DNA from: Candidatus Levyibacteriota bacterium
Lineage (GTDB): Bacteria; Patescibacteriota; Microgenomatia; Levybacterales; UBA12049
Assembly: GCA_963722305.1 (NCBI GenBank)
Contig: CAVRKE010000001.1
Coordinates: 12,312-76,311, forward strand
DNA length: 64,000 nucleotides
Direction: 5' to 3'
Shown here one piece after another: positions 1 through 64,000 of the stretch. Each line of letters starts with the position of its first letter. Within the stretch, counting starts at the first letter, position 1. The notes beneath the pieces are model-generated. The model was not told the origin of the DNA, ran no database searches, and saw only the letters and a program-made list of their open reading frames with translations. A program made the translations under genes and the position numbers.

Positions 1-780
1 AATTATTTCCAATATTTTACCGGTGATTTTTTGTTTATTAAAGGCGGGTTGCCGCTACTTCTAAGAGTGCCGAACATGGGTTTAGTTTACATTGTCGAAC
101 TGCCATTTATTCTGTGGGGGGTAATTAATTTGGTTAAAAGCAAAAATAAGTTTTCTAAAATTGCCCTGCTTTGGCTTTTGGTGGCTCCGGTGGTTTCCGC
201 GATTACGGTAGACGACAGCCCGAATGTCAGAAGAGCGCTGGTGATGTTTCCTGCGGTGGAAATGATTGCTGCCTACGGTTTCTTGATTTTCTTGGAAAAT
301 TATAGAGAGAATAAAAAGATTATTGTTTCACTAATATTTGCTTTATTTTTAGTTTTTAACTTTGCCTACTTTATGCACCAATACTTTATCCACGCCCAGA
401 TTAACAAGAACTGGTACCGTAACGTTGGTTTCAAAGAAATGGTGATGGATGTTAAAGCTTCCTTGGCAAATTATGACAAAGTAATCGTCACCAAAGCGGA
501 AAGCGGTGTGGGAATAATCACCCTTTTTTATATGCAGTATGATCCGGCTACTTACCAAAAGGAGGGTTCGCATCAGGATAAGGCTTATACCGGTTTTGGC
601 AAGTTCTTTTTTACCAACGCTTTTTGTCCGTCGGCCCAACCTGATCCCAAATATCCCAAAGCCAAGAAGATTATTTATGTTGATGACGGTACTTGTCCGG
701 ATTCGGCGATGCTTGGCTTAAAACATACCGACATCGTCAGAAAAGATGATACCCGGGTGTTTAGAATTGTCTATGACTAG
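1..780 (+). CDS. C-terminal part of a Pmt/ArnT-like (GT39-type) GT-C glycosyltransferase; 5' end lies outside the window
   Basis: The frame is open from base 1. The C-terminal domain aligns with the C-termini of the 773-2419, 19829, 21439 and 23055 paralogs (YxQYDPxxYQK, FGKF motifs). A TM segment precedes it. Confidence 0.6.
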   Translation, partial: NYFQYFTGDFLFIKGGLPLLLRVPNMGLVYIVELPFILWGVINLVKSKNKFSKIALLWLLVAPVVSAITVDDSPNVRRALVMFPAVEMIAAYGFLIFLENYRENKKIIVSLIFALFLVFNFAYFMHQYFIHAQINKNWYRNVGFKEMVMDVKASLANYDKVIVTKAESGVGIITLFYMQYDPATYQKEGSHQDKAYTGFGKFFFTNAFCPSAQPDPKYPKAKKIIYVDDGTCPDSAMLGLKHTDIVRKDDTRVFRIVYD

Positions 781-2419
781 ATTTTTAAAATGGAATTTCA
801 TTATTCTTGCATTAATTTTGCTACTGGGATTTTGTTTAAGGTTCTATCAGTTGGGTAGTAATCCGCCAAGTCTTGACTGGGACGAAGCCTCTTTGGGTTA
901 CAATGCCTATTCAATCTTAAAGACGGGGGCAGATGAATATGGCAATTTTTTGCCCTTAAGCTTTAGGTCTTTCGATGATTATAAACCGCCTTTGTATGTA
1001 TATCTGGATGTGCCAAGCATCGCCGTGTTTGGTTTAAATGAATTAGGAACAAGATTTCCTTCGGCCTTCCTTGGCTTTTTAAGCATCATTGTTGTTTATT
1101 GGTTAGTCAAAGAAATTTTCGATACGCTGGAGGATGATAAAAAAGAAAAATTGGCTTTAATCTCGGCTTTTTTCTGGGCAGTTTCTCCCTGGAGTTTACA
1201 GTTTTCCCGGACAGCCTTTGAGGCCAATGTCGGTTTATTTTTCTGCTTGTTGGGGTTTTTATTATTCCTAAAAGCTTTGCGAAGCCCCAAAATTATTTTT
1301 ACCTCGGTGGCTTCTTTTGCTTTAAGCATGTATTCGTATCACAGTTTTAGATTGGTTGTACCGCTATTTGCAATAGCATGTCTTATTTATTTTTGGAAAA
1401 ATGTTTGGGCAAACAAAAAATATTATTTAGTGGCGTTTATTTTTGCTTTGTTGGTTTCACTGCCGATTTTTTTGAGTTTTTTCGGGGCGAGCGGTTCGGC
1501 AGCCAGGTTAGATATGGTTTCGCTTTTTTCCGACCAAAGTCTAATTAAGGAGTCTACAAAAACAGTGCAATACGATCTGGTTCGCCATGACTACATTGGT
1601 GCGGCCCTCAATAATAGAAGGATTGTCTACGCAGTAGCCGCAATTAAATCATATTTTGTTCATTGGAATCCCGATTTTCTTTTTTTGCACGGCGACGGCG
1701 GAGTTCAACATCATGCCTACAACATGGGGATGCTTTATCTGTGGGATTTGCCCTTTATTTTAATCGGTATATTTGCACTTCTTATTAAAAACAGAACAAA
1801 AAAAACATGGCTTTTAATCGTCATGTTCTTATTGGCTCCCTTACCGGCCGCGGTTTCAACCGGTGCTCCGCATCCGGTCAGAGCAATTACGATGGCGCCG
1901 GTATTTTCCATCTTTGCGGCTTTTGGAGTATACTATCTTTTTTTTAACCAGACAAAAATTCAAAGAAGAGTTCTTTTAACCATTATGGCGCTTCTTTTTA
2001 TTGCAAACTTCGGTTATTATCTTTATCAATATTATGTTCAAACGCCGATTAAGTATGGCTATTTCTGGCAGTATGGAAATAAACAGGCAGTCCAGGCAGC
2101 CAGGTCTTTGGAAAGGAAGTACACAAAAATTATTTTTACCTACGCCTACGACCAGCCTTACATTTACTATTTGTTCTACAATAAAATTGACCCGGCTTGG
2201 TACCAAAAGCACTGGAATTATTTGGGCAACGGCCAAGTGGAAAGGTTTAAGAGAATTATTGGTAAATACGAATTCAGAAATATTAACTGGGGAGTTGACA
2301 GTAAACTCGAAGATACTTTATTAATCGGCAGTCCGGCGGAAATTCCGGCTAATGCAACCATAATTAAGACAATTTATTATCTTGACGGGACGGTTGCTTA
2401 TAGAATTGTCGGTACATGA
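773..2419 (+). CDS. Pmt/ArnT-like GT-C glycosyltransferase (GT39/PMT_2-like), polytopic
   Basis: N-terminal loop 'PPSLDWDEASLGYNAYSIL..GADEYGNFLPL..FDDYKPPLY' is the DE/first-loop motif typical of Pmt/ArnT-type enzymes. There are many TM helices. The C-terminal soluble domain has the WQYGNKQAV..PYIYYLFY motif. The start is probably the ATG at 773, overlapping the upstream stop. Confidence 0.75.
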   Translation: MTRFLKWNFIILALILLLGFCLRFYQLGSNPPSLDWDEASLGYNAYSILKTGADEYGNFLPLSFRSFDDYKPPLYVYLDVPSIAVFGLNELGTRFPSAFLGFLSIIVVYWLVKEIFDTLEDDKKEKLALISAFFWAVSPWSLQFSRTAFEANVGLFFCLLGFLLFLKALRSPKIIFTSVASFALSMYSYHSFRLVVPLFAIACLIYFWKNVWANKKYYLVAFIFALLVSLPIFLSFFGASGSAARLDMVSLFSDQSLIKESTKTVQYDLVRHDYIGAALNNRRIVYAVAAIKSYFVHWNPDFLFLHGDGGVQHHAYNMGMLYLWDLPFILIGIFALLIKNRTKKTWLLIVMFLLAPLPAAVSTGAPHPVRAITMAPVFSIFAAFGVYYLFFNQTKIQRRVLLTIMALLFIANFGYYLYQYYVQTPIKYGYFWQYGNKQAVQAARSLERKYTKIIFTYAYDQPYIYYLFYNKIDPAWYQKHWNYLGNGQVERFKRIIGKYEFRNINWGVDSKLEDTLLIGSPAEIPANATIIKTIYYLDGTVAYRIVGT

Positions 2420-4062
2420 AAAAAACTTTACTTTATTATTTCGGAATACTAATTTTGGCGGTAGTGGTTTGTTTGCCTTTGATTTTGCCTTATTTCAGAA
2501 CCGGTTTTTTCCCAAGCCATGACGGGGAATGGACAGTAGTCAGGTTGTCGGACATGTACCGGGAAATCAAAGACCTGCAGTTCCCTCCGCGTTACAGCGG
2601 GTATTTAAACTTCCAGTATGGGTATCCGCTGTTTAACTTTACCTATCCTTTACCATATTATTTTGGTTTATTTTTCGTTTTTCTTAAAGCCGGATTTGTA
2701 AACAGTATTAAAATTTTATTTTCCCTAAGCGTTATTCTGTCGTTTTTCTCGATGTTTATCCTTTCGGCTTCTGTCTGGAAAAACAAATGGGCGGGTTTGG
2801 TCAGCGCTATTTTTTACGCTTATGTTCCTTATCGAGTTGTTGACTTATATGTCCGGGGTTCGATTGGTGAATCGTTGTCGTTTGTGCTTTTTCCACTAAT
2901 ATTTTTGAGCATAAAAAGAATCTACGAGAAAAGACAGTTTAGCGATATGGTCTGGCTGGGAGTTTTGTATGCTCTGCTGATTGCCACCCATAATATCATG
3001 ACGGTGCTGTTTGGAATTGTAGTTTTACTTATCATGTTGGCCGCTTTATTTAAAAAAGAAATCGAGTTTATCGTCAAGCTCGTTTTGTCATTAATGCTGT
3101 CTTTGTGCTTTTCGGCCTTTTTCTGGATTCCTGCCATTTTTGAAAAAAATTTAATCCATTTATCAATAATTCCGATTGCGGATAGGAGTTTGTATTTTGT
3201 CAAGCCATTGCAGCTAATTCTGCCGCAATGGGGATACGGAACGCCGACCGACCCAAACCCTTTTGGCTATCAGGTCGGAATTCCTCAGTTAATAATTTTT
3301 GTTTTGGCGGCAGTATTTATTCTGATAAATATCAAAAAGGATAAGCTTGCCAAGACCGGGCTTTTTCTGGTTGTGTCAACGCTTTTGATCTCAATTTTGC
3401 TTTTTTCTCCAACAGCCATCATCTGGAGTAAAACGCCCTTACTTTCGGAAATAAATTATCCCTGGACGCTTCTGGGAGTGATAATGTTTTTGGTCGGTTT
3501 AACCGCCGGATATTTAACTAAATTAGGCAAAACTTTTATTGCTTTAAGCATATTCTTAAGTATTTTTGCCATTATTTTTGTGATGCCTCACTCCCGACCC
3601 CAATATTTTGTCAACAGGGGAGATGCTTATTATTCCACAAATCAGGGTACGACAACTTCGTCAAATGAACTGATGCCTTTATGGGTGAAGGAGTGGCCGG
3701 TTAGTTCACCGCTTGAAAAGGTGGTTATCAATTCAGGCAAAGTCAAAGATGTTGCTTATAACTCCCGGAAAATAACTTTTACTGTTGATTTACCAAAAAC
3801 TGAAATAGTCAGAATAAATATAATCTACTATCCCGGATGGGTGTTCACGGTTGACGGACAACCGGCAAAAATTAATTATGCCAATCCCACCGGGGTGATG
3901 GATTTGCGGATTGCCACCGGAAAACATGCTGTCAAAGGAATTTTTACGGAAACCCCCCTGAGGCTTCTCAGCGATTTAATCTCGCTAGTTGCCATTATTG
4001 GGTTTTTCCTGGGATTAATCTATCGATTAATCTATAATAATATTTTGAGATTAAGAAAATGA
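2416..4062 (+). CDS. Polytopic membrane protein, putative GT-C glycosyltransferase ('family D', YfhO-like C-terminus)
   Basis: 548 aa with about 12 TM helices. N-terminal loop 'FFPSHDGEWTVVRL...FPPRYSGYLNFQYGYPLFNF'. C-terminal 'YYPGWVFTVDGQPAKI' resembles the YfhO C-terminal YxPxWxAxVDG motif. ATGA overlap with the upstream gene. Confidence 0.55.
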   Translation: MKKTLLYYFGILILAVVVCLPLILPYFRTGFFPSHDGEWTVVRLSDMYREIKDLQFPPRYSGYLNFQYGYPLFNFTYPLPYYFGLFFVFLKAGFVNSIKILFSLSVILSFFSMFILSASVWKNKWAGLVSAIFYAYVPYRVVDLYVRGSIGESLSFVLFPLIFLSIKRIYEKRQFSDMVWLGVLYALLIATHNIMTVLFGIVVLLIMLAALFKKEIEFIVKLVLSLMLSLCFSAFFWIPAIFEKNLIHLSIIPIADRSLYFVKPLQLILPQWGYGTPTDPNPFGYQVGIPQLIIFVLAAVFILINIKKDKLAKTGLFLVVSTLLISILLFSPTAIIWSKTPLLSEINYPWTLLGVIMFLVGLTAGYLTKLGKTFIALSIFLSIFAIIFVMPHSRPQYFVNRGDAYYSTNQGTTTSSNELMPLWVKEWPVSSPLEKVVINSGKVKDVAYNSRKITFTVDLPKTEIVRINIIYYPGWVFTVDGQPAKINYANPTGVMDLRIATGKHAVKGIFTETPLRLLSDLISLVAIIGFFLGLIYRLIYNNILRLRK

Positions 4063-5804
4063 AGCTCATAAAACAATTTTTACCGTTAATTTTTATTTTG
4101 TTGTTAGCCCTTCCGGCGGCCATTCCGCTTTTCCATCCCGGTTTTTTCCCGATGCACGATGATGAACAAATAGCCAGACTCCAACAACTGACGATAGCGA
4201 TTAACAATTGGCAGATTCCGCCCCGTTGGATTCCTGATTTGGGATTTGGTTACGGCTTTCCGTTGTTTAATTTTTACCCTCCACTGGTTTACTACCTAGG
4301 GTATCTGTTTCATTTTATCGGATTTTCTTTTATTAACTCCACAAAGCTGGTCATGGGTTTGGGGTTTATCTTGTCGGCTTCGTTTATGTTCCTTTGGGTA
4401 AGAAAGCACTACGGAACGCTTGCGGGTATTTTTGCAGCCCTTCTATATACGTACGTTCCTTATCATGCAGTCGATTTATACGTTAGAGGTGCACTTTCCG
4501 AATTTTTTTCTTTCGTTTGGATTCCGGCGGTTTTTTGGGCTTTTGACCGCCTTTCGGAAAAAAAGACTTTGGGAAACGCCATACTGGCGGGGATTTTTTT
4601 AGCGTTTGTTATATTAACCCATAATTTAGTTTTTATTCAATTTATTCCCTTTTTGGCAATCTATCTAATCTATCTGCTTTATCTTGAAAGAAAAAATCTC
4701 AAAAATTTTTTGCCTTTCATAGTTCTTTCCTTAAGCTTAAGTGTCGGATTAACTTTATATTTTACGCTTCCCGCACTTTTGGAAAAACAATATACACTGG
4801 TAGATAAAATTCTTACGGGAGAATTGGCGAGTTATAAATTGTATTTTGTTTGTCCGGGGCAATTTTTCAATTCTCCGTGGGGTTACGGCGGATCAATTCC
4901 GGGGTGTATCGACGGGATGTCATTTCAAATCGGTAAAATTCAGCTATTTGTTTCTATTCTTAGCTTGATTTTTATAGTTTTTGCCGCCGCTTTTAGAAAA
5001 ATCTTTGCGTTTAAAAATCTTAAATTGCCGATTGTCGCGTTTATTCTATTGGTCTTTTCTCTGTTTATGGCAACATCTTACTCGGAATTTATTTGGAATG
5101 CGATACAACCTTTATCCTACATTCAATTTCCCTGGAGATTCCTGCTTTTTACGGCAGTCTTTTCATCATTTTTGGGCGGATTTGTCATCGCTTTTTTGGG
5201 AAAATATGTAAATAAGTATATTGTTATTTTTATTCTCGTAATCTTAGCCGGAGCTTGTTTGTATTCGATAAGATTGGATTTTAAACCATCCGCCTATCTA
5301 GCGGTGACGGATTCTACTTATACTTCAAAGCAAGATATTCAATGGCGGGTTTCCAAGATGTCCTATGAATATGTGCCTAAAGGAGTAGCAACAAAGCTTT
5401 CCGATTTGGGGACCACCATTTTGGATATATCCGAGAGTGATCTTCCCAAGAAGAGTTTCGCAGTCATAGTTGGAAAAATGACTGTGGGTGAAAAAGTAAA
5501 TATCCCCCAACGAAAAATATATTCAGTCAACGTTATTGACGCCGGACAGCTGCGTATTAATACATTTTCTTTTCCAGGCTGGATTGTACTTGTGGACGGT
5601 AAAAAAATAACATACAATGACAACAACAAATTAAAATTAATTACAATTTATTTGACAAAAGGCGAACATAAAGTAGAGATTTTATTTAAGGATACTTTGC
5701 CAAGAACAATAGGTAACAGCGTAAGCATAATCACTGTTTTGGTTTTAGTCATTCTGGGACTAATTTTAGTCAGGAAAAAGATAAAGCATGAAGAAAATAA
5801 ATGA
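4059..5804 (+). CDS. Tandem paralog of 2416-4062 (family D polytopic membrane protein, putative GT-C)
   Basis: Same motifs: 'FFPMHDDEQIARL..IPPRWIPDLGFGYGFPLFNF' and a C-terminal 'FPGWIVLVDGKKI'. Architecture is collinear with the upstream gene. Confidence 0.55.
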   Translation: MKLIKQFLPLIFILLLALPAAIPLFHPGFFPMHDDEQIARLQQLTIAINNWQIPPRWIPDLGFGYGFPLFNFYPPLVYYLGYLFHFIGFSFINSTKLVMGLGFILSASFMFLWVRKHYGTLAGIFAALLYTYVPYHAVDLYVRGALSEFFSFVWIPAVFWAFDRLSEKKTLGNAILAGIFLAFVILTHNLVFIQFIPFLAIYLIYLLYLERKNLKNFLPFIVLSLSLSVGLTLYFTLPALLEKQYTLVDKILTGELASYKLYFVCPGQFFNSPWGYGGSIPGCIDGMSFQIGKIQLFVSILSLIFIVFAAAFRKIFAFKNLKLPIVAFILLVFSLFMATSYSEFIWNAIQPLSYIQFPWRFLLFTAVFSSFLGGFVIAFLGKYVNKYIVIFILVILAGACLYSIRLDFKPSAYLAVTDSTYTSKQDIQWRVSKMSYEYVPKGVATKLSDLGTTILDISESDLPKKSFAVIVGKMTVGEKVNIPQRKIYSVNVIDAGQLRINTFSFPGWIVLVDGKKITYNDNNKLKLITIYLTKGEHKVEILFKDTLPRTIGNSVSIITVLVLVILGLILVRKKIKHEENK

Positions 5805-6504: not shown

Positions 6505-6506
6505 TT

Positions 6507-15486: not shown

Positions 15487-15487
15487 G

Positions 15488-43633: not shown

Positions 43634-43715
43634 AATCCGGACCAACAGCCGAGCAATTCGGAGCGTGGGCGTTTATATTTTTTTAGTTGCCGGAACTATC
43701 CAAGCCTTACTAGAA

Positions 43716-54855: not shown

Positions 54856-55971
54856 ATGTTGATTGGCATCGACGGGAACGAAGCAAATGTACAAAAGCGG
54901 GTGGGTATCGGCGAGTATGCATACGAACTGCTGACGCAGTTCGAGAGATTTAAGATTAATGATTTAAGATTTAAGATTTATCTCAAGAATGCCCCGATGG
55001 GGCATATGCCGAAGGAAAGAGAAGGGTGGAAGTACCAGGTATTTGGCCCGAGGAAAATGTGGACCCAATTTGCTTTGCCTCTGAATTTGTTTTTAAGCAG
55101 GCCAAAACCGGTTGTATTTTTTAGTCCCAGCCATTATGCTCCGCGGTTTTCTCCGGTTCCGACCGCGATTTCAATTATGGATTTGTCCTATATCCATTTT
55201 TCCGAGCTTTTTACCAAACACGATTTATATCAATTAATCAATTGGACCAAATACTCCGCAAAAAACGCTCGGAAAATATTCACAATCAGTAATTTTAGTA
55301 GGGATGATATAATCAAAACATACGAGAAAAGACCGGAGGACGTGGTCACGACGTATCTTGGGATAAAGGAGATTAAAGATTCAGGATTAAAGATTAAAGA
55401 TATGGACGAACTAGAAAAAAAGTTCAAGATTACAAAACCTTACATTCTGTTTGTTGGTACTTTGCAGCCCCGAAAAAACATTGTCAGACTAATTGAAGCC
55501 TTCTCCAAAATTAAAGACAAAACAGTCAAATTAATAGTTGTTGGTAAAAAGGGCTGGTTGTGGGAAGAGATTATTCAGGCTCCGGAAAAGTTTGGGGTTT
55601 TAGAAAGAGTCAAGTTTCTGGATTTTGTCAAAGATGAAGACCTCCCGGGGCTTTATAAAAATGCGCTTTGTTTTGTTTTGCCCAGTCTTTATGAAGGTTT
55701 CGGCTTGCCGGTTCTGGAAGCGATGAAATACGGCTGCCCGGTTTTAGTCAGTAATGTCTCCAGTCTTCCCGAAGTTGGAGGAGATGCTGCTGTGTATTTT
55801 AATCCGCAAAACACGGATGAGATTACTCAACAGCTGGATAAAGTTCTGTCCGATGAAGAGCTAAGGAAAGAAATGGTTAAAAAAGGTTATAATCAGGTTA
55901 AGCAGTTTTCTTGGGAAAAAGCGGCGTCCGAAACGCTTCGCGTTTTGGAGGAATTAGGAGGTAAGAAGTAA
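54856..55971 (+). CDS. GT4 glycosyltransferase
   Basis: '[28 protein letters not shown]'. It contains two heptad-periodic repeat tracts (54946-54980 and 55371-55405). Confidence 0.8.
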   Translation: MLIGIDGNEANVQKRVGIGEYAYELLTQFERFKINDLRFKIYLKNAPMGHMPKEREGWKYQVFGPRKMWTQFALPLNLFLSRPKPVVFFSPSHYAPRFSPVPTAISIMDLSYIHFSELFTKHDLYQLINWTKYSAKNARKIFTISNFSRDDIIKTYEKRPEDVVTTYLGIKEIKDSGLKIKDMDELEKKFKITKPYILFVGTLQPRKNIVRLIEAFSKIKDKTVKLIVVGKKGWLWEEIIQAPEKFGVLERVKFLDFVKDEDLPGLYKNALCFVLPSLYEGFGLPVLEAMKYGCPVLVSNVSSLPEVGGDAAVYFNPQNTDEITQQLDKVLSDEELRKEMVKKGYNQVKQFSWEKAASETLRVLEELGGKK

Positions 55972-55976
55972 GAATT

Positions 55977-56528
55977 ATGAATAGAGTCGCCAGGAGGATA
56001 AAAACGGTATTTTGGGAATTAGTCTGTTGGAAATTAGCAGTTACAGGTTATATTCCCTCGCATTATTTAAGAAGATTTGTTTACCGTTTTTGGGGAGTAA
56101 AGATTGGTAGTGGTTCAACCATGCATATGCACGCCTCTTTTTATTATCCGCCGAACGTCACAATTGGTGAAGACACGATAATCGGTGAGAAGGTGGTTTT
56201 AGACGGAAGAGCTAAGCTTGTAATCGGTAACCACGTTGATATCGCCAGCGAAGTGATGATTTATAATTCCGAACATGATCTAAACGACGAAAACTTTAAA
56301 GCCATTTCCGAACCGGTGACAGTTGAGGATTATGTGTTTATCGGGCCAAGAGCAATTATTCTACCCGGGGTCACAATTCACAAAGGCGCGGTGGTTGCCG
56401 CCGGTGCGGTGGTCACCAAAGATGTACCGGAATTTGTGGTTGTCGGGGGAGTACCGGCTAAAGAAATTGCCCAAAGAGAAAATAAAAATCCTAATTATAA
56501 ACTTGGTAGAGCCGCTTGGTTTCGATAA
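55977..56528 (+). CDS. Hexapeptide-repeat (left-handed beta-helix) sugar O-acetyltransferase (WcaF/maltose-acetyltransferase-like)
   Basis: 'IGEDTIIGEKVVLDGRAKLVIGNHVDIASEVMIYN' and 'VFIGPRAIILPGVTIHKGAVVAAGAVVTKDV'. Confidence 0.75.
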   Translation: MNRVARRIKTVFWELVCWKLAVTGYIPSHYLRRFVYRFWGVKIGSGSTMHMHASFYYPPNVTIGEDTIIGEKVVLDGRAKLVIGNHVDIASEVMIYNSEHDLNDENFKAISEPVTVEDYVFIGPRAIILPGVTIHKGAVVAAGAVVTKDVPEFVVVGGVPAKEIAQRENKNPNYKLGRAAWFR

Positions 56529-56604
56529 CGAAGTTCATAAAGTTAAAAGTTCATGAGTGTAATAAAGTACTTTATAGACTTTTGACTTTACAAACTTTTA
56601 ACTT
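56529..56604. repeat. Palindromic intergenic repeat R2 (same family as R1)
   Basis: 'GAAGTTCATAAAGTT...AATAAAGTACTTTAT...ACTTTACAAACTTTTAACTT' ending at the ATG of 56605. It shares GTTCATAAAGT and ATAAAGTACTTTA with R1. Confidence 0.55.
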
Positions 56605-57483
56605 ATGACAGACTTGTCAATAATTATTTTAAATTACAATACCAAAGATTTAACCGTTGAGTGTATAAATTCCATCGTTTCGCAATATAAAGAAGAATTG
56701 GATAAAGGGATTTTTGAAATTATCTTGGTTGATAATGCCTCAAGCGACGGAAGTATCGAAAAACTGGCAAGACTTAAAACACAAATTCCAAATCTAAATT
56801 TAAGCGAAAGCCAAGAAAACTTGGGGTTTTCGAAAGGCTGTAATTTGGGGGCAAATAGCGCAAAAGGGGATTATCTATTATTTTTAAATTCGGACACCGA
56901 AATTAAGGACCAGGGACTAAAAAAAATGGTTGAGTATCTGAAAAAAAATAAAAAAATCGGCATTTTAGGTGCCGCATTGAAAAATGAGGACGGCACCACC
57001 CAGCCCTCAACCGGAAAATTTTATAATCTTATAAATCTTTTTTTAATGTTGTTGGGTTTTGAGCGCTTAGGATTTTTAAGAGACAGTCCGAAAGAAATTA
57101 AAAAAGTCGATTGGGTCAGCGGGGCAGCGCTAATGATAAAGAGGAAAATTTTTAAGATAATCGGGGGATTTGAAAAAGAGCTGTTTATGTACGGAGAAGA
57201 CATGGAGCTTTGTTTTAGGGCCAACAAAAACGGTTTTCCGACTTTTTTCTATCCAGAAATTATTTTATTCCATAAACAAAGAGGCAGCAGTAATCGCACT
57301 TTTGCCATAGTCAATATTTATAAGTCATTGCTCTTTTTTTACAAAAAATATAAACCGGGTTGGCAATACGAAATTGCCAGGTTTCTATTACACTCAAAAT
57401 CTTCTATACTTAACACGGTTGGACTCTTAACCAATAATAAGTACTTAAAAGAAACTTATGGGCAAACTCTGGAACTGTTTTAA
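56605..57483 (+). CDS. GT2 glycosyltransferase
   Basis: 'LSIIILNYNTKDLTVECINSI', 'IILVDNASSDGS', 'LNSDTEI' and 'YGEDMELC'. Confidence 0.8.
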   Translation: MTDLSIIILNYNTKDLTVECINSIVSQYKEELDKGIFEIILVDNASSDGSIEKLARLKTQIPNLNLSESQENLGFSKGCNLGANSAKGDYLLFLNSDTEIKDQGLKKMVEYLKKNKKIGILGAALKNEDGTTQPSTGKFYNLINLFLMLLGFERLGFLRDSPKEIKKVDWVSGAALMIKRKIFKIIGGFEKELFMYGEDMELCFRANKNGFPTFFYPEIILFHKQRGSSNRTFAIVNIYKSLLFFYKKYKPGWQYEIARFLLHSKSSILNTVGLLTNNKYLKETYGQTLELF

Positions 57484-57507: not shown

Positions 57508-60500
57508 ATGAAAAAGATTTTTTCTTGGATAAAAAGTAATATTTTATTTGTTGAAACTTTAATTCTTTTAGCCTTTATCCCTCTGTATCCCAAATTGCCC
57601 TTGATAAATGTCAGAAATACTTGGGTTTATGTCAGAGCAGAAGATTTTTTAATCGTGATTGTTTTAATTTCGTGGGCAATACTGCTTCTTCGAAAGAAGA
57701 TTTCTCTTAGGACTCCTCTGACTATCCCCATACTCATTTTTTGGCTGATTGGTGCAGTTTCCACCATTCATGGAGTGTTTTTAATCTTTCCAACCATTGC
57801 GAATGTTTTTCCAAACGTCGCCTTTTTAACGCTTTTAAGGCATATCGAATACCTTAGCTTATTCTTTATTGCTTTCCAGGGAATGAAGGACAAAAGCTAC
57901 CTGAGAAGTGTGATAGCAGTGCTGGTCCTGACTCTTTTAGGAGTTATTTTTTATGGTTTTGGGCAGAGGTATTTAGGTTTTCCGGCATTTCTAACCGGCA
58001 ATGAACAATTTGCTAAAGGAATTCCTCTTCAACTTTCGCAACTTTCCCGGATTCCCTCTACTTTTGCCGGAGACTATGATTTGGCAGCCTACTTAGTTTT
58101 AATTATTCCAATTATTGTCAGTCTTATTTTTGGAATAAGAAATTATTTAATAAAAGGACTGCTGTTTGCAACTTCTATTTTGGCATTCATTCTGCTTTTT
58201 ATGACTGTATCGCGAGTATCATTCTTCGCTGTTTTTGTTGCCTTACTAATAATCTTATTTTTTCAAAAAAGAAAAGTATTATTTGTCATTGTGCCATTAG
58301 TAGTGATTGCCCTAGTTCTAGTGTTGAGCTTTAAACCGGCGCTACTGAATAGATTTAATAGTACGGTAAAAGATGTCAATGTTTTAGTGGATGCCAAAAC
58401 AGGGGCATCAATAGGGAGTGTGGAGTATGTTCCAAATAGCTTATTTAAAAACGGAATCGTTTTGCAAACAAGGGTTAGCGACGTGAATGAACTTGCCGGT
58501 GCGATGTCAGGACAACTTGGTGCGCCCACAGCTTCTTTACCGGCAGTCCTTTCCTTTGATTATATCCCACCGGAAGTGCCCTTAGTACATGCGATTAATG
58601 TTTCAAACGGAGAGAGTCTTCCCCAGGGGACAGCTTATATTAATCTGCCGCTTTCACCGGTGGTTAAGCGGGTGGAAAATTTCTTCTATGAGTTTTCTCC
58701 AAATATTAAAGCCTCTTCTTCTGCCCGATTTATTGATATACACGGTAACTTTATTATTAAGAAAGCGGCGGCTTATGATTTATCTTTTACCACCAGATTT
58801 CAGGGTGAATGGCCAAGAACAATCGCCGCTTTTGAGAAGGATGTCATCTTCGGCAGTGGTTACGGCTCAGTCAGTTTGGCAGTAGACAACAATTATCTAA
58901 GAATGCTTGGCGAAATAGGCCTTTTAGGCTTGAGCGCTTTTTTTGCGATCTTTATTTCTTTTGGCATTTACCTAAAAAAAGGCTGGCCGGACATTCATTC
59001 TTCCCTTGAGAAAAGTTTTGTTCTCGGATTTGTCGCCGGACTGATAGGATTAGGGCTGAACGCAATCCTGATTGATGTTTTTGAAGCCTCAAAAGTCGCT
59101 TATACGTTATGGCTTTTAACTGGAGTGACCCTGGGAATTGTGGCTTTAAATATGAAGAGTAGAGTAGATTTATTGTCAGAGCTGAAGAAGCTGGTTACTT
59201 CTGTCTACGCTGTAATTATTGCTCTCTTCGGTCTTGCAACAGTGATGTATATTTCCATGCTAAATAATTTTTTTGTGGCAGATGATTTTACGTGGCTGAG
59301 ATGGGCGGCTCAAGCGCCGGCTAATCTGTTAACTTATTTCACCCAGGCAGACGGATTCTTCTACCGACCGGGCACTAAACTTTATTTTTATTTAATGTAT
59401 CAATTTTTCTGGTTAAATCCGGTTGCCTATCATCTTGTTTCATTTGTTTTGCATTTTGCCATGTCTGTTCTTTTCTTTGTTCTGGCTAAAAAGATTTTTA
59501 AGAGTAAATTGCTGGCAACACTGTGTGCAATTCTCTTTTTAGTAATGAGCGGATTCACGGAAAACATCTTTTGGATTGCCGCCACCGGACACATGATTAA
59601 TGCCGTATTGGGTCTTTTAGGTCTGCTTCTGTTTATCCAATGGGAAGAAAAAAAGAATAAATATTATTATCTTTTGTCATTGGGAAGTTTTGCGCTGGCG
59701 CTGTTCTTTCATGAGCTTGGTGTTATATTCCCTCTTTTGATTTTGGCTTATAAAGCCAAAGACGGATGGAAATCGGTTAAGAATATGCTTTTAAGAAAAG
59801 ATTGGCTTTTCCTGTTTGTACCGGTAATTGGCTATTTAATTTTAAGATTTTTGGCCAACAGTCACTGGCAAGGTGGGGACTATAGCTATAACTTATTTAA
59901 GCTGCCGTTTAACTTTATCGGCAACGCTTTGGGCTATGCAGCTTTAGTGCTGGTTGGACCATCGTCGCTTAACTTTTATGCAAAATTAAGGACACTGACC
60001 AGTGGGCATTTGGCTATTCTGCTTGGTGGTGTTATTGTCTTACTAGCTTTACTGGCGCTTTTATATCTGGCGTTTAAGAAATTTTTAGGCAAAGAGGAAA
60101 AATCAATTGTCGTATTTGGCTTAAGCTTTTTCGTAGTTGCGCTTTTACCTTTCTTGGGGCTTGGTAATATCACTTCCAGGTACTGTTATTTGGCTTCTTT
60201 GGGTTTAATAGTAATTGTAATAATGCTTCTTAAAAAAGTTTATTACTATCTTCGGTTTGACAGCGGTAAGGAGATTTCATTGGCAGTGGTTGTCCTTTTG
60301 TTTATGGTTTATTCGTTCTTCCAGGTTATTTCCGTACAGCAGAGCGCTTCCAATTGGGCTGGGGCGGCAAGCGAAACCAATAACTTTTTTATCTCCTTTG
60401 ATGCTTCTTATACCGATTCCTGGACGACCCAAGCGACAAAGTTCCATTTCATAAACGTTCCTACCAAGGTTGGTGATGCTTGGGTATTCCCGGTCGGACT

Positions 60501-60666
60501 GAGTGACGCCGTCTGGCTGGCGGTTAAAAGCGACAAGGCCTTGGTTTACATAGACAGTAATGTCAGTACTGCGCTTATTGACGTCGGTACTTCTAAAACA
60601 GACAAGATATTTATATTTAATTCTGACGGTAGCCTTACAGAGGTCACCAAAAGAATTATAAAGTAA
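57508..60666 (+). CDS. 1052-aa fusion membrane protein: N-terminal O-antigen-ligase/Wzy_C-like domain plus a C-terminal second polytopic domain
   Basis: Wzy_C-like signature 'DNNYLRMLGEIGLLGLSAFFAIFIS' at about aa 460, after about 10 TM helices. Another roughly 500 aa follow with about 10 more TM helices ('FVADDFTWLRWAAQAP..FFYRPGTKLYFY') and a C-terminal soluble tail. Confidence 0.55.
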   Translation: MKKIFSWIKSNILFVETLILLAFIPLYPKLPLINVRNTWVYVRAEDFLIVIVLISWAILLLRKKISLRTPLTIPILIFWLIGAVSTIHGVFLIFPTIANVFPNVAFLTLLRHIEYLSLFFIAFQGMKDKSYLRSVIAVLVLTLLGVIFYGFGQRYLGFPAFLTGNEQFAKGIPLQLSQLSRIPSTFAGDYDLAAYLVLIIPIIVSLIFGIRNYLIKGLLFATSILAFILLFMTVSRVSFFAVFVALLIILFFQKRKVLFVIVPLVVIALVLVLSFKPALLNRFNSTVKDVNVLVDAKTGASIGSVEYVPNSLFKNGIVLQTRVSDVNELAGAMSGQLGAPTASLPAVLSFDYIPPEVPLVHAINVSNGESLPQGTAYINLPLSPVVKRVENFFYEFSPNIKASSSARFIDIHGNFIIKKAAAYDLSFTTRFQGEWPRTIAAFEKDVIFGSGYGSVSLAVDNNYLRMLGEIGLLGLSAFFAIFISFGIYLKKGWPDIHSSLEKSFVLGFVAGLIGLGLNAILIDVFEASKVAYTLWLLTGVTLGIVALNMKSRVDLLSELKKLVTSVYAVIIALFGLATVMYISMLNNFFVADDFTWLRWAAQAPANLLTYFTQADGFFYRPGTKLYFYLMYQFFWLNPVAYHLVSFVLHFAMSVLFFVLAKKIFKSKLLATLCAILFLVMSGFTENIFWIAATGHMINAVLGLLGLLLFIQWEEKKNKYYYLLSLGSFALALFFHELGVIFPLLILAYKAKDGWKSVKNMLLRKDWLFLFVPVIGYLILRFLANSHWQGGDYSYNLFKLPFNFIGNALGYAALVLVGPSSLNFYAKLRTLTSGHLAILLGGVIVLLALLALLYLAFKKFLGKEEKSIVVFGLSFFVVALLPFLGLGNITSRYCYLASLGLIVIVIMLLKKVYYYLRFDSGKEISLAVVVLLFMVYSFFQVISVQQSASNWAGAASETNNFFISFDASYTDSWTTQATKFHFINVPTKVGDAWVFPVGLSDAVWLAVKSDKALVYIDSNVSTALIDVGTSKTDKIFIFNSDGSLTEVTKRIIK

Positions 60667-60669: not shown

Positions 60670-62145
60670 ATGAATGCGGGAATTTTAAAAAAAATAGAAA
60701 TTGTTTTGTTGGCGGTTATTTTATTGGTAGGTTTTGCCGTCAGGCTTTACAGATTTAACGGTCCGGTGGCGGATTGGCATTCCTGGCGTCAGGCGGATAC
60801 TTCGGCAGTTTCCCGGAACTTTGTGCAAAACGGCTTTGACCTTTTGCATCCGAAATTTGAAGATTTATCAAACGTTCCTTCGGGCTTGGATAATCCAAAC
60901 GGTTACCGCTTTGTGGAATTTCCGATTTATAATCTTTTGCAGGCCGGATTTTTCAAAATTATCGGAGTGCTGACACTGGAAGAATGGGGAAGGCTGGTGA
61001 CAATCTTCGCTTCACTTTTTTCTTCTTTGTTTTTGTTCGCATTGGTTAAAAAAAGATTTGGCCGCGTGCCGGCATTTTTGACAACTTTCTTCTTTTTAAT
61101 TATTCCTTTTAACATTTACTATTCAAGAACGATTTTACCCGACCCTTCAATGGTGACTGCTATTTTGGGAGGAACGTTTTTTTTTGATAAATGGCTCGAT
61201 AATAATTCAAAATTCAAAATTCAAAATTCAAAATTAAAGAGTGCTGTTTATTTTCTTTTGTCACTTTTTCTTACGGCAGCGGCTCTGCTTTTAAAGCCTT
61301 ACGCTTTGTTTTTTACCCTGCCAATGATTTATCTGGCGTTTGAGAAATTCGGATTCGGATTGCTTAAAAAATGGCAGTTGTGGCTATTTTTAATCGTTTC
61401 AATTATACCCTTGGCTTTCTGGCGAGTGTGGATGACGCAGTATCCGGCCGGAATTCCCGCCAGCGCCTGGCTTTTTAACGAAGGAAATATCCGCTTTAAA
61501 GGGGCTTTCTTCTATTGGATTTTTGCCGACAGGATTGGCAGGCTAATTTCGGGATTTTGGGGAGTGGCCCTTATTATCCTTGGCTTTTTGGCAAAATCGA
61601 AAAAGAAAGACCTGCTGTTTCTGCTTTCTTTTGTTGTCTCATCTTTGCTGTATGTGACGGTTATCGCACGGGGCAATGTTCAGCACGATTATTACCAAAT
61701 ATTAATTATTCCAACCTTGGCAATTCTAATGGGCGTTGGAGCAGCCGGTCTTTTGGAAAGAGCCGAAACATACAAAATGTTTATAAATTATGCGATTGTG
61801 ATTGTTTGCACTTTATTTACAATTTTCTTCGGCTGGTATTTCGTCAGGGATTACTTTAATATCAACAATCCGTCAATAATTGTGGCAGGAGAGGCAGTGG
61901 ATAAATTGACTGCCAAAAATGCCAAGGTCATTGCCAATTATAACGGGGATACCTCGTTTCTTTATCAGACTAAAAGAAGCGGTTGGGCAAGCTTTGAAAA
62001 ACCGTTGCCGGAAATGATAAACATGGGCGCAGATTATCTGGTGTTGGCAAATCCGACCACGGTTGATTTAGGTTTGGGGAAGACCTACAAAATAATCGCC
62101 CAAACTTCACAATACGTAATTTTTGATTTAAGACAAAAACCATGA
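60670..62145 (+). CDS. ArnT-like (GT83/GT39-type) GT-C glycosyltransferase
   Basis: 'RLYRFNGPVADWHSWRQADTSAVSRNFVQNGFDLLHPKFEDL..NPNGYRFVEFPIYNLLQA'. It is polytopic. A (TTCAAAA)x4 repeat and a T9 run lie inside the coding sequence. Confidence 0.7.
   Translation: MNAGILKKIEIVLLAVILLVGFAVRLYRFNGPVADWHSWRQADTSAVSRNFVQNGFDLLHPKFEDLSNVPSGLDNPNGYRFVEFPIYNLLQAGFFKIIGVLTLEEWGRLVTIFASLFSSLFLFALVKKRFGRVPAFLTTFFFLIIPFNIYYSRTILPDPSMVTAILGGTFFFDKWLDNNSKFKIQNSKLKSAVYFLLSLFLTAAALLLKPYALFFTLPMIYLAFEKFGFGLLKKWQLWLFLIVSIIPLAFWRVWMTQYPAGIPASAWLFNEGNIRFKGAFFYWIFADRIGRLISGFWGVALIILGFLAKSKKKDLLFLLSFVVSSLLYVTVIARGNVQHDYYQILIIPTLAILMGVGAAGLLERAETYKMFINYAIVIVCTLFTIFFGWYFVRDYFNINNPSIIVAGEAVDKLTAKNAKVIANYNGDTSFLYQTKRSGWASFEKPLPEMINMGADYLVLANPTTVDLGLGKTYKIIAQTSQYVIFDLRQKP
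61206..61233 (+). repeat. Perfect heptanucleotide tandem repeat (TTCAAAA)x4 inside the ArnT-like CDS, flanked by degenerate copies
   Basis: Read directly: aataa ttcaaaa ttcaaaa ttcaaaa ttcaaaa ttaaaga. It encodes '..NSKFKIQNSKLK..'. A T9 run lies 20 nt upstream. Confidence 0.8.
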
Positions 62146-63332
62146 AAATTTTAATGGTTTCCTCATATCTTCCTTATCCCCTTTATTCGGGCGGTCACGT
62201 TCGTTTGTATAATCTAATTAAGCATCTTTCGGAAAAGCACGACATCACTTTAGTTTGTGAAAAAAGGGATAATCAAACGGCTGAAGACGTCAAGGAGGTA
62301 GAAAACATTTGCCGGAAAGTAATTACCGTGCAAAGACAGAAACAGTGGAGCATCAAAAATATCCTCAGAACCGGTTTTTCGCTGCAGCCGTTTTTAGTCG
62401 TTGGCCATACCAGCGAAGCAATGCGGTTGGCGATCAAAGATGAGCTGGTAAGGGAAAATTACGAATTAATCCACGTTGAGACTTTTTACGTAATGCAAAA
62501 TTTACCGCGGGTTTCAATTCCGGTGGTTCTGGTCGAGCATAATGTTGAGTATCTCGTTTATGACAGGTTTGCCAAACTGGCAAAGCCTCTCTTAAAGCCG
62601 TTTCTCTATATCGATGTTGCCAAGCTTAAGCAGGCGGAAATTAGTACTTGGCAAAAAGCGGATAAACTGATTGCCGTCTCGAATGCGGAAAAAAGAGTGA
62701 TGAAAAGAGCAGACGTTGAGGTTGTTCCCAATGGTGTTGACACCAAGGCTTTTCAGTTCAGAAGCTCGGAAGTAATTCCCAATGAAAAAAGAATTCTGTT
62801 TATTGGCGATTTCAAATGGCTACAAAATATTGATGCGGCCGAGACTATTCTTAAAAATATCTGGCCAAGCCTTTGCCTAAAGCTGTCGGAAACAAAAGAA
62901 AAAACAGCGGTCAAGCTATGGTTGGTGGGCAGAAATATGCCGTCTAAAATCAAAAATTTGGCCACAGGGAAAAATATCATTGTGGATGAAAATAACAAAG
63001 ACGAAACCCCGGAGCTTTTCCGCAAAGCTTACGTGCTCTTAGCTCCAATTAGGGCCGGAGGCGGAACCAGCTATAAAATTATCGAGGCAATGGCAGCGGG
63101 AGTGGGTGTGGTGACGACTAATTTAGGTATCGAAGGATTGGAAGCAAAAAATAATATCCACGTTCTGGCTTCGCAGTACGAGGATGAAATGAGCGAACTG
63201 GTGCTTAATTTAATTCAAGACCATAGTCTTTACCGAAAGCTGACCTTAAATGCCAGGAAGTTGGTAGAAGAAAAGTACGACTGGAAAATAATTGCCGATA
63301 AATTAAACGAAGTTTATTTATCTTCCTTATGA
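62142..63332 (+). CDS. GT4 glycosyltransferase
   Basis: 'YKIIEAMAAGVGVVTTNLGIEGLEA'. N-terminal 'MKILMVSSYLPYPLYSGGHVRLYNL'. Confidence 0.8.
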   Translation: MKILMVSSYLPYPLYSGGHVRLYNLIKHLSEKHDITLVCEKRDNQTAEDVKEVENICRKVITVQRQKQWSIKNILRTGFSLQPFLVVGHTSEAMRLAIKDELVRENYELIHVETFYVMQNLPRVSIPVVLVEHNVEYLVYDRFAKLAKPLLKPFLYIDVAKLKQAEISTWQKADKLIAVSNAEKRVMKRADVEVVPNGVDTKAFQFRSSEVIPNEKRILFIGDFKWLQNIDAAETILKNIWPSLCLKLSETKEKTAVKLWLVGRNMPSKIKNLATGKNIIVDENNKDETPELFRKAYVLLAPIRAGGGTSYKIIEAMAAGVGVVTTNLGIEGLEAKNNIHVLASQYEDEMSELVLNLIQDHSLYRKLTLNARKLVEEKYDWKIIADKLNEVYLSSL

Positions 63333-64000
63333 TTGAGCTTTCAATAGTAATTGTTTCATATAACACTAAAGACGTTCTAAAAGAATGTCTTGAGTCAATT
63401 TACAAAACTGCCGGAAATTTAAGTTTTGAAATTATAGTGGTCGATAATGCTTCAAAGGATGAATCAGTATCAAGTATTAAGAATTATGTATCAAGCGCAA
63501 AAACGGAAAACCTAAAACTTATTGAAAATAATGAAAATCTCGGTTTTTCCAAAGCCAATAATATTGGTATTAAAAAGTGTAGCGGCAGGTACATTTTGTT
63601 TTTAAATCCCGACGTGGTGGTTCACTCCGGCACACTTTCGGGTATGGTTAAATTTATGGACGCTGACGCGCATCAAGATGTTGGCGCCGCGACTTGCAGG
63701 GTAAATTTGCCAAACGGAAAAATAGACGATGCTTCCCACCGCGGTTTTCCGACTCCCTGGAATGCCTTAACGCATTTTTCAGGATTGGCAAAACTGTTCG
63801 GGAAAACAAAACATTTCGGCGGATATAATTTAAAACATTTAGACCTCTCGACGATGCATGAAATAGAGGCTTTGGCCGGCGCGTTCATGATTGTCAGAAG
63901 AGAAGCGGGGGAAGTGGTTAAATGGTGGGATGAGGATTATTTTTTCTATGGTGAGGATATTGACTTTTGTTATATGTTAAAACAGGCAAATTGGAAAGTA
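63329..64000 (+). CDS. GT2 glycosyltransferase (RfbF-like); 3' end lies outside the window
   Basis: The frame is open from ATG 63329 (ATGA overlap) to the window end. It is not in the ORF track because no stop is reached. It reads 'LSIVIVSYNTKDVLKECLESI', 'IIVVDNASKDES', 'LNPDVVV' and 'YGEDIDFCY'. Confidence 0.75.
   Translation, partial: MIELSIVIVSYNTKDVLKECLESIYKTAGNLSFEIIVVDNASKDESVSSIKNYVSSAKTENLKLIENNENLGFSKANNIGIKKCSGRYILFLNPDVVVHSGTLSGMVKFMDADAHQDVGAATCRVNLPNGKIDDASHRGFPTPWNALTHFSGLAKLFGKTKHFGGYNLKHLDLSTMHEIEALAGAFMIVRREAGEVVKWWDEDYFFYGEDIDFCYMLKQANWKV

Follow-up and report, generated by a model that had tools for sequence, protein, structure and literature searches.

A putative envelope-glycan assembly island rich in GT-C-type membrane glycosyltransferases in a Levybacteria-like Patescibacterium

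Introduction

In the Gtr systems (GtrA/GtrB/Gtr*) and in the pentofuranose systems built on a MATE flippase and GT136 (Kelly et al. 2024, PMC11127046), the genes for a polyprenyl-phosphate-sugar synthase (GtrB/ArnC/DPM1 class), for a flippase and for a membrane glycosyltransferase of the GT-C type are neighbours, and sugars are added outside the membrane onto a glycan of the Wzx-type or another route. Here, we describe a locus with a similar arrangement in a 64,000-nucleotide stretch of contig CAVRKE010000001.1 (positions 12,312 to 76,311; hereafter the window) from a Candidatus Levyibacteriota bacterium, a member of the candidate phyla radiation (CPR). The locus, an island of glycan-biosynthesis genes, differs from the Gtr and GT136 systems in that three to four putative synthases are available for about 18 GT-C enzymes, there is no GtrA/SMR flippase and the only flippase candidates are of the Wzx/MOP type. 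Moreover, its GT-C genes belong to a conserved core instead of serving as accessories for serotype conversion, and it is found in a CPR bacterium that is monoderm-like.

The closest logic, by analogy, is that of mycobacterial arabinogalactan and lipoarabinomannan assembly, where few lipid-linked donors serve many GT-C enzymes, together with that of the Gtr, YfhO and ArnT types of decoration. In mycobacteria and corynebacteria, arabinogalactan, lipomannan and lipoarabinomannan are made by Emb, AftA-D, PimE and related enzymes, which use decaprenyl-P-arabinose and polyprenyl-P-mannose. Unlike these, the proteins of the island show no sequence-level membership in Emb, Aft or GT87, and no DprE/UbiA-type donor pathway is present. 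The genes also lie in a single island of a 0.6-Mb genome, whereas those of mycobacteria are scattered over a genome of 4.4 Mb.

Other described systems each share a part of the island. As in CsbB/YfhO of Bacillus and GtlA/GtlB of Listeria, a true YfhO-type GT-C (85.5 bits) stands among GT2 genes and near a DPM1-like synthase, and the GT4-YfhO-GT2 triad of the island recalls the csbB-yfhO operon, but the window has no Glyphos_transf/teichoic-acid genes and no GtcA/GtrA, and the GT2 next to the YfhO gene (15458; genes are named by the first coordinate given in Table 1) is not clearly of the polyprenyl-P type. With ArnC/ArnT the island shares a full-length ArnC-like protein (53282, 1e-47) and PMT_2, the family of ArnT-type GT-C enzymes, but it has no ArnA, ArnB or ArnD, and the ArnC-like protein scores 180 bits against an equivalog value of 529. 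CPR bacteria are thought to have neither an outer membrane nor lipid A. Wzx/Wzy loci for O-antigen or capsule (WaaL/PglL-type) have in common with the island GT2 and GT4 genes, Wzx, acetyl- and methyltransferases, GalE, a Wzy_C-like protein and a variable centre, as well as a Bac_transf gene found in relatives, whereas in the island a conserved protein of 1052 amino acids (aa) joins the Wzy_C-like domain with a GT-C domain, and GT-C genes dominate. The GT-C fold and a DE motif of the first loop are shared with Pmt (GT39), as is a weak match of 19829 to the PMT model, but the island proteins contain no MIR or 4TMC domain and most copies match PMT_2 only.

The glycosyltransferases of CPR genomes have been mentioned in passing, as "29 genes of glycosyl transferases" (PMC7143001) or for their abundance (PMC4736985), and our literature search found no description of this island.

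Materials and Methods

Every open reading frame (ORF) of the window was scanned against Pfam, and matches at or above the gathering score were kept apart from sub-threshold ones. Polytopic proteins were recognized by a hydropathy scan, which is crude and over-splits long segments. GT-C families were defined by all-against-all BLAST of the window proteins, and profiles built from window proteins and their relatives were compared with hhalign. A profile of family C (see below) was searched against the species-representative genomes of GTDB, and the resulting 42 loci were taken with 10-kb flanks and their ORFs matched to the window proteins. Two more loci, L044 and L045, were taken around homologues of the fusion protein 57508 (72% and 60% identical, respectively); L045 lies on an 863-kb contig.

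Results

About 60 tightly packed ORFs fill the window, frequently with 4-nt start/stop overlaps, and nearly all of it consists of glycan-biosynthesis genes (Table 1), as an initial annotation made from the sequence alone had stated. There are 18 genes for GT-C-type membrane glycosyltransferases, one cut by the window edge and one frameshifted, plus two decayed GT-C-like remnants, so that the earlier figure of at least 20 was essentially right, if slightly generous. The other classes agree with what had been proposed (at least 12 GT2 with three DPM1/GtrB-like enzymes, about eight GT4, two Wzx-like flippases, GalE, an acetyltransferase and methyltransferases). Pfam counts 12 GT2 genes, among which alignment to PDB and NCBIfam entries points to three firm and one possible polyprenyl-phosphate-sugar synthases; the eight GT4 loci comprise five intact genes, two disrupted ones and one with the N-terminal domain only; and two Wzx flippases, GalE, one hexapeptide acetyltransferase and four methyltransferases (one truncated) were recovered. 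A cupin-type sugar-isomerase-like gene and an NPP-type phosphodiesterase are also present. A single island holds about 18 extracytoplasmic and about 20 cytoplasmic glycosyltransferases. The left edge of the window interrupts a GT-C paralogue and the right edge a GT2; therefore, the island is larger than the window.

The assignment of the polytopic proteins to GT-C is supported by several kinds of comparison. All 18 candidates have 7-19 hydrophobic segments, and the hydropathy scan counts 18-19 polytopic proteins apart from the Wzx pair. Six of them (746, 19829, 21439, 23055, 24687 and 60670) reach the gathering score of PMT_2, with 19829 matching the PMT model as well (33 bits), and 13195 exceeds that of YfhO. 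Just below threshold are 4059 (cut-off 26.4 bits) and 2416 for PTPS_related and 25966 for PMT_2. By BLAST, the proteins fall into family A (PMT_2-type, five copies and the distant 60670), family B (PTPS_related, two copies), family C (two copies of about 650 aa), family D (four copies, one frameshifted) and singletons, and paralogues within the window share just 24-45% identity. In hhalign, family A matched family D at 99.5%, family B at 95% and 60670 at 97%, and family B matched YfhO at 99.7% and family D at 98%, while the Wzx control stayed below 3% against every GT-C family. Of the polytopic proteins with no Pfam match, 51562 and 46472 are linked to family D by BLAST and profiles. AlphaFold models are of high confidence, and GT-C folds are their only matches. 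NCBIfam gave no match for nine of the 10 polytopic proteins scanned and a weak IctB match for the tenth.

The acidic motifs in the first loop, pointed out in the initial annotation, are directly visible in the sequences and are invariant or nearly invariant inside the family alignments. They read DWDE in family A, DQxRD in family D, HD[GD]E in family B and DEDDN in the 49962 family, where D43 and E44 are nearly invariant; the corresponding acidic residues are D136 in family C and D592 and D593 in the fusion protein. Clusters of Lys/Arg precede the first transmembrane (TM) helix, and by the positive-inside rule, read from sequence only, the motif loops would face outside. Co-location with DPM1/GtrB-type synthases suggests that the GT-C enzymes use polyprenyl-phosphate-linked sugar donors.

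Two of the GT-C families have no Pfam model. In family C, a Pfam scan of 32 members yielded just a faint DUF6541 match in seven and no match to STT3. Its fold resembles AglB, PglB and STT3, including the C-terminal domain, and the invariant or near-invariant residues listed from the 32-sequence alignment spell no WWDxG-type motif, the motif itself not having been searched for. Family C was not assigned to the oligosaccharyltransferases (STT3/AglB/PglB), the defining features being absent or not seen. None of 32 aligned members of the 49962 family matches a GT-C Pfam model. An exhaustive search of representatives placed 1218 of 1.84 billion clusters in this family as strong matches, among which there was no bridge to a named family; homologues with a named source are few and nearly all labelled Patescibacteria. 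Both families would be expected to be new to CAZy too, which was not searched. Family A as bona fide Pmt (GT39) was rejected because MIR and PMT_4TMC had no match in any of the proteins at E<=0.01. Searches of PDB by sequence or profile with family C, the fusion protein alone or the alignment of its homologues gave nothing meaningful.

Three to four GT2 enzymes are supported by sequence comparison as synthases of the DPM1/GtrB/ArnC type. In 53282, residues 2-291 align end to end with ArnC 10-298 and GtrB 28-315. It was rejected as an ArnC orthologue: its score to the NCBIfam ArnC model is 179.9 bits, far below the equivalog cut-off of 529, and it is therefore a family member only. Candidate DPM1-type synthases are 18434, 5788 and 33318, all below equivalog cut-offs. 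Residues 1-232 of 18434 align with 23-249 of DPMS, and its match to AglJ (121.6 bits) covers positions 2-216 of 293; 5788 is similar but weaker and matches AglJ (2-196/293), ArnC (3-216/316) and PpgS (4-196/226), each sub-equivalog; the match of 33318 (33318-34118), possibly of the PpgS/PgfS type in NCBIfam, is marginal and weaker than the others. Synthases and GT-C genes are neighbours in three places: a PTPS-type GT-C, a DPM1-like GT2 and Wzx follow one another at 4059-7961, the YfhO gene 13195 has 18434 3 kb downstream, and 53282 precedes the genes for the fusion protein and a PMT_2-type GT-C. Three-component systems with a flippase of the MOP/MATE type have been described before (PMC11127046).

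The 42 loci found with family C come from independent metagenome-assembled genomes (MAGs) of Levybacteria and Gottesmanbacteria, and many share gene order with the window; the source genome itself is not one of the GTDB species representatives, among which the best match is 59% identical. The recurrent order begins with a PTPS-type GT-C, a DPM1-like GT2, Wzx and GT2 genes, passes through GT4, YfhO and GT2 to a DPM1-like GT2 with family C and two or three PMT_2 genes, and ends with family D followed by GT2, GalE and GT4; single loci display stretches of this order, none the whole. The YfhO gene is adjoined by a GT4 in 19 of the 42 loci and by a GT2 in 18, at least eight GT-C genes lie within 22 kb in 17 loci, and a synthase like 18434 co-occurs with family C in 19 loci, adjacent to it in seven. 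Clear orthologues were found for YfhO in 26 loci, for family C in 31, for the family D pair in 10-11, for 4059 in seven and, with their order kept, for 19829, 21439 and 23055 in three, 17 and 12. Genes like 4059 adjoin a 5788-like GT2 and/or Wzx in L031, L040, L025, L027, L042 and L012, and the second family C paralogue, 48017, has its own orthologues in L026, L037 and L039. Paralogue-specific orthologues outscore any paralogue in the window by a wide margin. Given these orthologues, the conserved order and the low identity between paralogues in the window, the duplications are ancient and the copies have been retained with distinct roles. The GT-C set looks like a fixed multi-step assembly line rather than a recent diversification.

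The right-hand part of the window (53.3-64 kb) has its own order, which was matched in L044 and L045: an ArnC/GtrB-like GT2, a GT4 N-domain gene, GT4, acetyltransferase, GT2, the fusion protein, PMT_2, GT4 and GT2, with counterparts of the GT2 genes 56605 and 63332 missing from L044. Orthologues of 60670 stand directly after the fusion gene in both. The fusion protein combines an O-antigen-ligase/Wzy_C-like N-terminus with a GT-C C-terminus. Its Wzy_C match falls into two stretches (positions 222-295 and about 418-478), since a large external loop of about 170 residues is inserted within the Wzy_C-like domain, and some homologues carry the NCBI name "O-antigen ligase family protein." A 41-sequence profile of the C-terminal half gave 95.6% in hhalign against family A and 93.7% against family D, and D592, D593, R620 and P621, which come shortly behind a TM helix, are invariant. 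Homologues number more than 1000, and among the best 120 listed identity is 54-73%, nearly always along the entire protein. About 170 residues are invariant in 33 sequences, which makes this gene by far the most conserved of the island. No other ligase-like/GT-C fusions turned up in database and literature searches, which were not aimed at such fusions.

Farther along in L044 and L045, past one or two unrelated genes, follow GT4, GT4, NTP_transferase, a 221-aa Bac_transf and DUF4012. Because Bac_transf lies about 5-8 kb past the position equivalent to the window end in these relatives, a priming transferase is predicted several kb beyond the right end of the window. With this continuation, the right-hand gene set has the hallmarks of a pathway that works through a lipid-linked oligosaccharide. 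The protein with DUF4012 (about 650 aa) is encoded directly after Bac_transf (L044 21220-23159, L045 21646-23165); it may act in this pathway too, and its gene would be expected shortly beyond the window end. The GT4 N-domain gene 54211 was considered as a pseudogene fragment, which was rejected since it is kept as a separate short gene of 177-185 aa in the relatives too (L044 7552-8109, L045 6855-7388). It stands directly upstream of a full-length GT4 and could be an Alg14-like partner subunit.

Between these flanks, the centre (33-53 kb) has the lowest GC content and shows decay and gene turnover, behaving as the variable middle of an O-antigen or capsule locus. Seven genes are disrupted, all within 34.1-48.0 kb and none elsewhere in the window: two GT4, the truncated methyltransferase, a 724-aa GT-C-like gene, a 359-aa membrane gene, a minus-strand remnant and a family D gene. 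In the GT-C-like pseudogene 40658, the intact orthologues of L047 (724 aa) and L045 (733 aa) align collinearly in frames 2, 3, 2 and 1, and weak YfhO/PTPS profile matches are likewise collinear (best E 3e-6). The minus-strand region 44288-46234 may be another decayed GT-C gene, judging from collinear weak PTPS/YfhO matches (E about 1e-3) and from a stretch of 50 aa that is 46% identical to the 733-aa protein of L045; its ORFs have no Pfam match and are not present in the close relative L047. One of them, 44288-45316, encodes 342 aa with an N-terminal membrane anchor and an external part rich in Ser/Thr/Asn/Tyr. It has no Pfam match and no homologue in any fetched locus, and could be either a surface protein or a C-terminal domain orphaned by the decay of a GT-C gene.

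Where L047 and the window share sequence, at 46.5-53.2 kb, their DNA is 84% identical. L047 keeps the 724-aa and 359-aa genes intact and has a DegT aminotransferase in place of the minus-strand remnants, and its counterpart of the family D gene 46472 is split too. Random sequencing error was rejected as the cause of the frameshifts, seven of seven being within 34.1-48.0 kb and two of these genes intact in a close relative; collapse of strain variants during assembly is an alternative explanation of the cluster. Such a pseudogene cluster is unexpected for a streamlined 0.6-Mb genome.

One contig of 608,320 bp carries 100% identical copies of three proteins of the window, which alone makes up 10.5% of its length, and relatives are named Candidatus Levybacteria, Roizmanbacteria, Gottesmanbacteria or "Patescibacteria group." These matches identify the source as a Levybacteria-like Patescibacterium (Microgenomates, CPR), in line with the CPR-like cell suggested at the outset. 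Many MAGs whose locus is clearly of the Patescibacteria type have records titled "uncultured Gammaproteobacteria" or "Pseudomonadales" (L001, L003, L006-L009, L014-L017, L019, L020, L022, L026, L029, L031, L032, L034, L036, L038 and L042), labels that are apparently placeholders or wrong. GC content in the window is 32-40%, and GC skew is positive in all 2-kb windows except one. The plus strand carries nearly everything, the three substantial minus-strand ORFs all being inside 33-53 kb. The strand bias is near-total. For another Microgenomates genome, an unusual strand compositional asymmetry has been reported (PMC7143001). The 64-kb window contains no tRNA gene and no Rfam match, and promoter and terminator scans of it gave nothing informative.

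The phosphodiesterase 9767 belongs to the NPP/alkaline-phosphatase superfamily, has no TM segments and lies between two GT2 genes. None of the 42 related loci has an orthologue, and it looks like a lineage-specific insertion. The short membrane protein 29266 has an orthologue in L008 (452-1609, 240 bits to 29266) that scores 36.1 bits to PMT_2.

Table 1. Features of the 64-kb window. Positions are those of the window; a lone number is the first coordinate of a gene, and a plus sign joins the two parts of a disrupted one.
Position	Strand	Feature	Evidence
1..780	+	GT-C family A, C-terminal part, cut by edge; 4 TM	BLAST 28-31% to C-terminal halves of 746, 19829, 21439, 23055; no Pfam match
746..2419	+	GT-C family A, 557 aa, DWDE after TM1	PMT_2 43.7 bits
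2416..4062	+	GT-C family B (PTPS_related/YfhO-like), HDGE	PTPS_related 19.7 bits, sub-gathering
4059..5804	+	GT-C family B (PTPS_related), HDDE; heads GT-C/synthase/Wzx triad	PTPS_related 26.0 bits
5788..6504	+	GT2, DPM1-like synthase candidate, soluble, 238 aa	Glycos_transf_2 90.8 bits
6507..7961	+	Wzx/MOP-family flippase, about 12 or more TM	Polysacc_synt_3 164.8 bits
7958-8875	+	GT2, cytoplasmic	Pfam/NCBIfam
8878-9786	+	GT2, cytoplasmic	Pfam/NCBIfam
9767-11074	+	NPP-type phosphodiesterase	Pfam, NCBIfam, PDB
11071-11829	+	GT2, cytoplasmic	Pfam/NCBIfam
12125..13198	+	GT4, opens GT4-YfhO-GT2 triad	Glycos_transf_1 75.4 bits
13195..15486	+	GT-C, YfhO family, 763 aa	YfhO 85.5 bits (gathering 28.5), model 75-656 of 835
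15458..16423	+	GT2, one C-terminal TM (275-294), closes triad	Glycos_transf_2 97.5 bits
16425..18395	+	GT-C family C, 656 aa, C-terminal globular domain	No Pfam or NCBIfam model
18434..19144	+	GT2, DPM1/DPMS-like, soluble, 236 aa	PDB 5mlz DPMS (P. furiosus) 1.1e-18
19224..19832	+	S-adenosylmethionine-dependent methyltransferase	Methyltransf_23, _11, _25
19829-21442	+	GT-C family A, tandem	PMT_2 43-46 bits
21439-23058	+	GT-C family A, tandem	PMT_2 43-46 bits
23055-24686	+	GT-C family A, tandem	PMT_2 43-46 bits
24687-25976	+	GT-C family D, DQxRD/DQVDN	PMT_2 39.6 bits
25966-27432	+	GT-C family D, DQxRD/DQVDN	PMT_2 23.9 bits
27555..28331	+	GT2 with C-terminal TM	Glycos_transf_2 90.4 bits
28256..29293	+	GalE (UDP-glucose 4-epimerase)	PDB 8wxk 3.4e-100, full length
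29266..30453	+	Short GT-C (PMT_2-like), 395 aa, about 10-11 TM	No Pfam match of its own
30321-31490	+	GT4	Glycos_transf_1 103.4 bits
31491..32759	+	Second Wzx flippase	Polysacc_synt 57.7 bits
32805	+	Cupin/dTDP-sugar-isomerase-like	Pfam
33318	+	GT2, possible PpgS/PgfS-type	Pfam; NCBIfam
34115+34935	+	Disrupted GT4	Halves in different reading frames
35210	+	Methyltransferase	Pfam
35889	+	GT2	Pfam
36718	+	GT4	Pfam
37929	+	Methyltransferase	Pfam
38613+39155	+	Split GT4	Halves in different reading frames
39901 (block end 40293)	+	Truncated methyltransferase	Pfam
40658..42663	+	Pseudogene, polytopic GT-C-like (YfhO/PTPS-like), about 724-733 aa, 4 frame segments	Intact copies in relatives
42702..43681	+	Frameshifted membrane protein gene, about 359 aa	Alignment to the intact 359-aa orthologue of L047 (frame 3, then 2)
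44288..46234	-	ORFs 45488-46228 (8 TM) and 44288-45316 (1 TM, external domain)	Weak profile matches
46472..48017	+	GT-C family D, two frameshifts (frames 2, 1, 3)	Family D profile 98 bits on 46457-46780; BLAST to 25966, 51562; tblastn with L047 proteins
48017..49951	+	GT-C family C, second paralogue, 644 aa	32% full-length identity to 16425
49962..51533	-	GT-C, 49962 family, FIDEDDN	No Pfam model
51562..53124	+	GT-C family D, 520 aa	BLAST to 25966, 46725, 24687; no Pfam match
53282..54214	+	GT2, ArnC/GtrB-type, 2 C-terminal TM (228-256, 262-291)	PDB ArnC 9bhc 9.9e-48, GtrB 5ekp 8e-28
54211-54780	+	GT4, N-domain only, 189 aa	Pfam Glyco_transf_4
54856 (within 54211..57483)	+	GT4	Pfam
55977 (within 54211..57483)	+	Hexapeptide acetyltransferase	Pfam
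56605 (within 54211..57483)	+	GT2	Pfam
57508..60666	+	Fusion protein, 1052 aa: O-antigen-ligase/Wzy_C-like N-terminus, GT-C C-terminus	Wzy_C, hhalign
60670..62145	+	GT-C (PMT_2), DWHSWRQADT	PMT_2 28.4 bits
62142-63332	+	GT4	Pfam; orthologues in L044, L045
63332..64000	+	GT2, cut by edge	Pfam; orthologues in L044, L045

Discussion

We propose that the island is a composite envelope-glycan assembly line of at least 64 kb, with two coupled routes, conserved flanks and a variable centre, and would give this reading a probability of about 0.6. The classes, folds and motifs of the enzymes, the adjacency of their genes and their conservation are matters of observation. Sequence comparison marks the flanks at 1-32 kb and 53-64 kb as conserved core modules. 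In one route, a lipid-linked oligosaccharide would be primed by a phosphoglycosyltransferase encoded outside the window and built on the cytoplasmic face, where GT4 and GT2 enzymes would extend it, with O-acetylation, O-methylation and UDP-galactose from GalE. The Wzx flippases would export it, and the Wzy_C/O-antigen-ligase-like half of the fusion protein would polymerise it or pass it to an acceptor. In the other route, three to four DPM1/GtrB/ArnC-type GT2 enzymes would put single sugars on polyprenyl phosphate, and these few donors, once flipped, would feed about 18 GT-C enzymes, each responsible for a defined residue or linkage on the outer side. A glycolipid, a secondary cell-wall polymer or the glycan of a surface glycoprotein may result, and the variable centre probably tunes the fine structure of this product.

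A number of observations weigh against this proposal. The Wzy_C score of the fusion protein and its homologues is 19.9-26.2 bits and never reaches the gathering score of 31.7, and the Wzy_C-like half has no sequence match in PDB. Within the window, Pfam gives no match for a priming transferase of the Bac_transf or WecA type, for an LCP-type ligase and teichoic-acid genes, or for a GtrA-type flippase. The right-hand module of L045 is not contiguous with a GT-C array; therefore, the two routes may make separate products. Furthermore, in nine of the 42 loci (L005, L007, L010, L011, L023, L026, L033, L036 and L038), family C has no neighbour homologous to window proteins within 10 kb, and thus also exists outside the island context. 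The GT-C status of 29266 depends on one orthologue, and that of 51562 and 46725 on paralogy. Finally, we infer the donors, the sugars, the acceptor, the order of action, the flippase assignment and a single shared product.

The many GT-C paralogues and several synthases could also be explained by massively diversified, Gtr-like three-component systems that produce strain-variable glycans for interaction with a host or for phage/host evasion, an explanation close to that of the initial annotation. The central 33-53 kb, with its low GC, seven disrupted genes and content unlike that of L047 despite 84% identity, fits such variability, and to this block the earlier expectation of variable glycans applies; it does not hold for the rest of the island. 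Synthase, flippase and GT-C genes are indeed neighbours, as the three-component logic had it, but a GtrA-type flippase is absent from the window and a phosphoglycosyltransferase/Wzx/ligase-type route to a lipid-linked oligosaccharide is present as well. Most GT-C paralogues are individually orthologous in many genomes with conserved order, and at 24-45% identity within the window their duplications must be ancient, which speaks against the idea of massive diversification, as does the ORF map, which showed neither repeats nor invertible elements nor recombinases. We therefore regard this explanation as unlikely.

Protein glycosylation as the main task of the island seems to us equally improbable. 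PMT_2 enzymes and the Wzy_C (PglL/PilO-like) fusion would then O-glycosylate S-layer proteins or pilins, with family C transferring glycans en bloc. PglL/PilO O-oligosaccharyltransferases do contain Wzy_C domains, pili and S-layers occur on CPR cells, and 19829 matches the PMT model too. However, neither MIR nor PMT_4TMC was found in any family A protein, the window offers no candidate acceptor gene, and relatives of YfhO and ArnT are known for modifying teichoic acid and lipid A, not protein; for family C, the listed conserved residues include no WWDxG-type motif, though this motif was not directly searched. An artefact, in the form of a chimeric or mis-assembled MAG region or of hydrophobic ORFs over-read as glycosyltransferases, would account for the seven frameshifted or truncated genes in 34.1-48.0 kb and for the several families with no Pfam match. 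It is very hard to reconcile with a gene order that recurs in dozens of independent assemblies, with an identical fusion protein on a 4.6-kb short-read Logan contig (run ERR11594402), with high-confidence AlphaFold models that match GT-C folds only and with disruption limited to one 14-kb stretch rather than evenly spread, and we give it hardly any weight.

Every component class is already known, and what is new is the scale of the island per genome size and its conserved synteny across Microgenomates. Also new are two GT-C families that have no Pfam model and now have fold-level support from predicted structures, and the conserved ligase-like/GT-C fusion. A broader claim, which we advance tentatively and with less confidence than the assembly line itself, is that Levybacteria and related Microgenomates build a mycobacterium-style heteropolysaccharide or glycoconjugate extracytoplasmically, using about 18 GT-C enzymes whose line is ancient and syntenic, takes up at least 10% of a 0.6-Mb genome and includes at least two GT-C families outside Pfam and an undescribed ligase/GT-C fusion. 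Mycobacterium tuberculosis has roughly the same number of GT-C genes in a genome about seven times larger.

The island offers testable enzymes, namely the synthase/GT-C pairs, the two GT-C families for which Pfam has no model, and the ligase/GT-C fusion, and it provides a conserved genomic marker for Microgenomates. CPR genomes are stripped-down, yet this lineage keeps many glycosyltransferases, which argues that an elaborate surface glycan is essential to its cells. If the broader claim is true, a surface glycan would be central to the CPR lifestyle, perhaps as a layer for host attachment or recognition. The island bears on envelope construction and partner recognition in bacteria that are ultrasmall and probably depend on a host.

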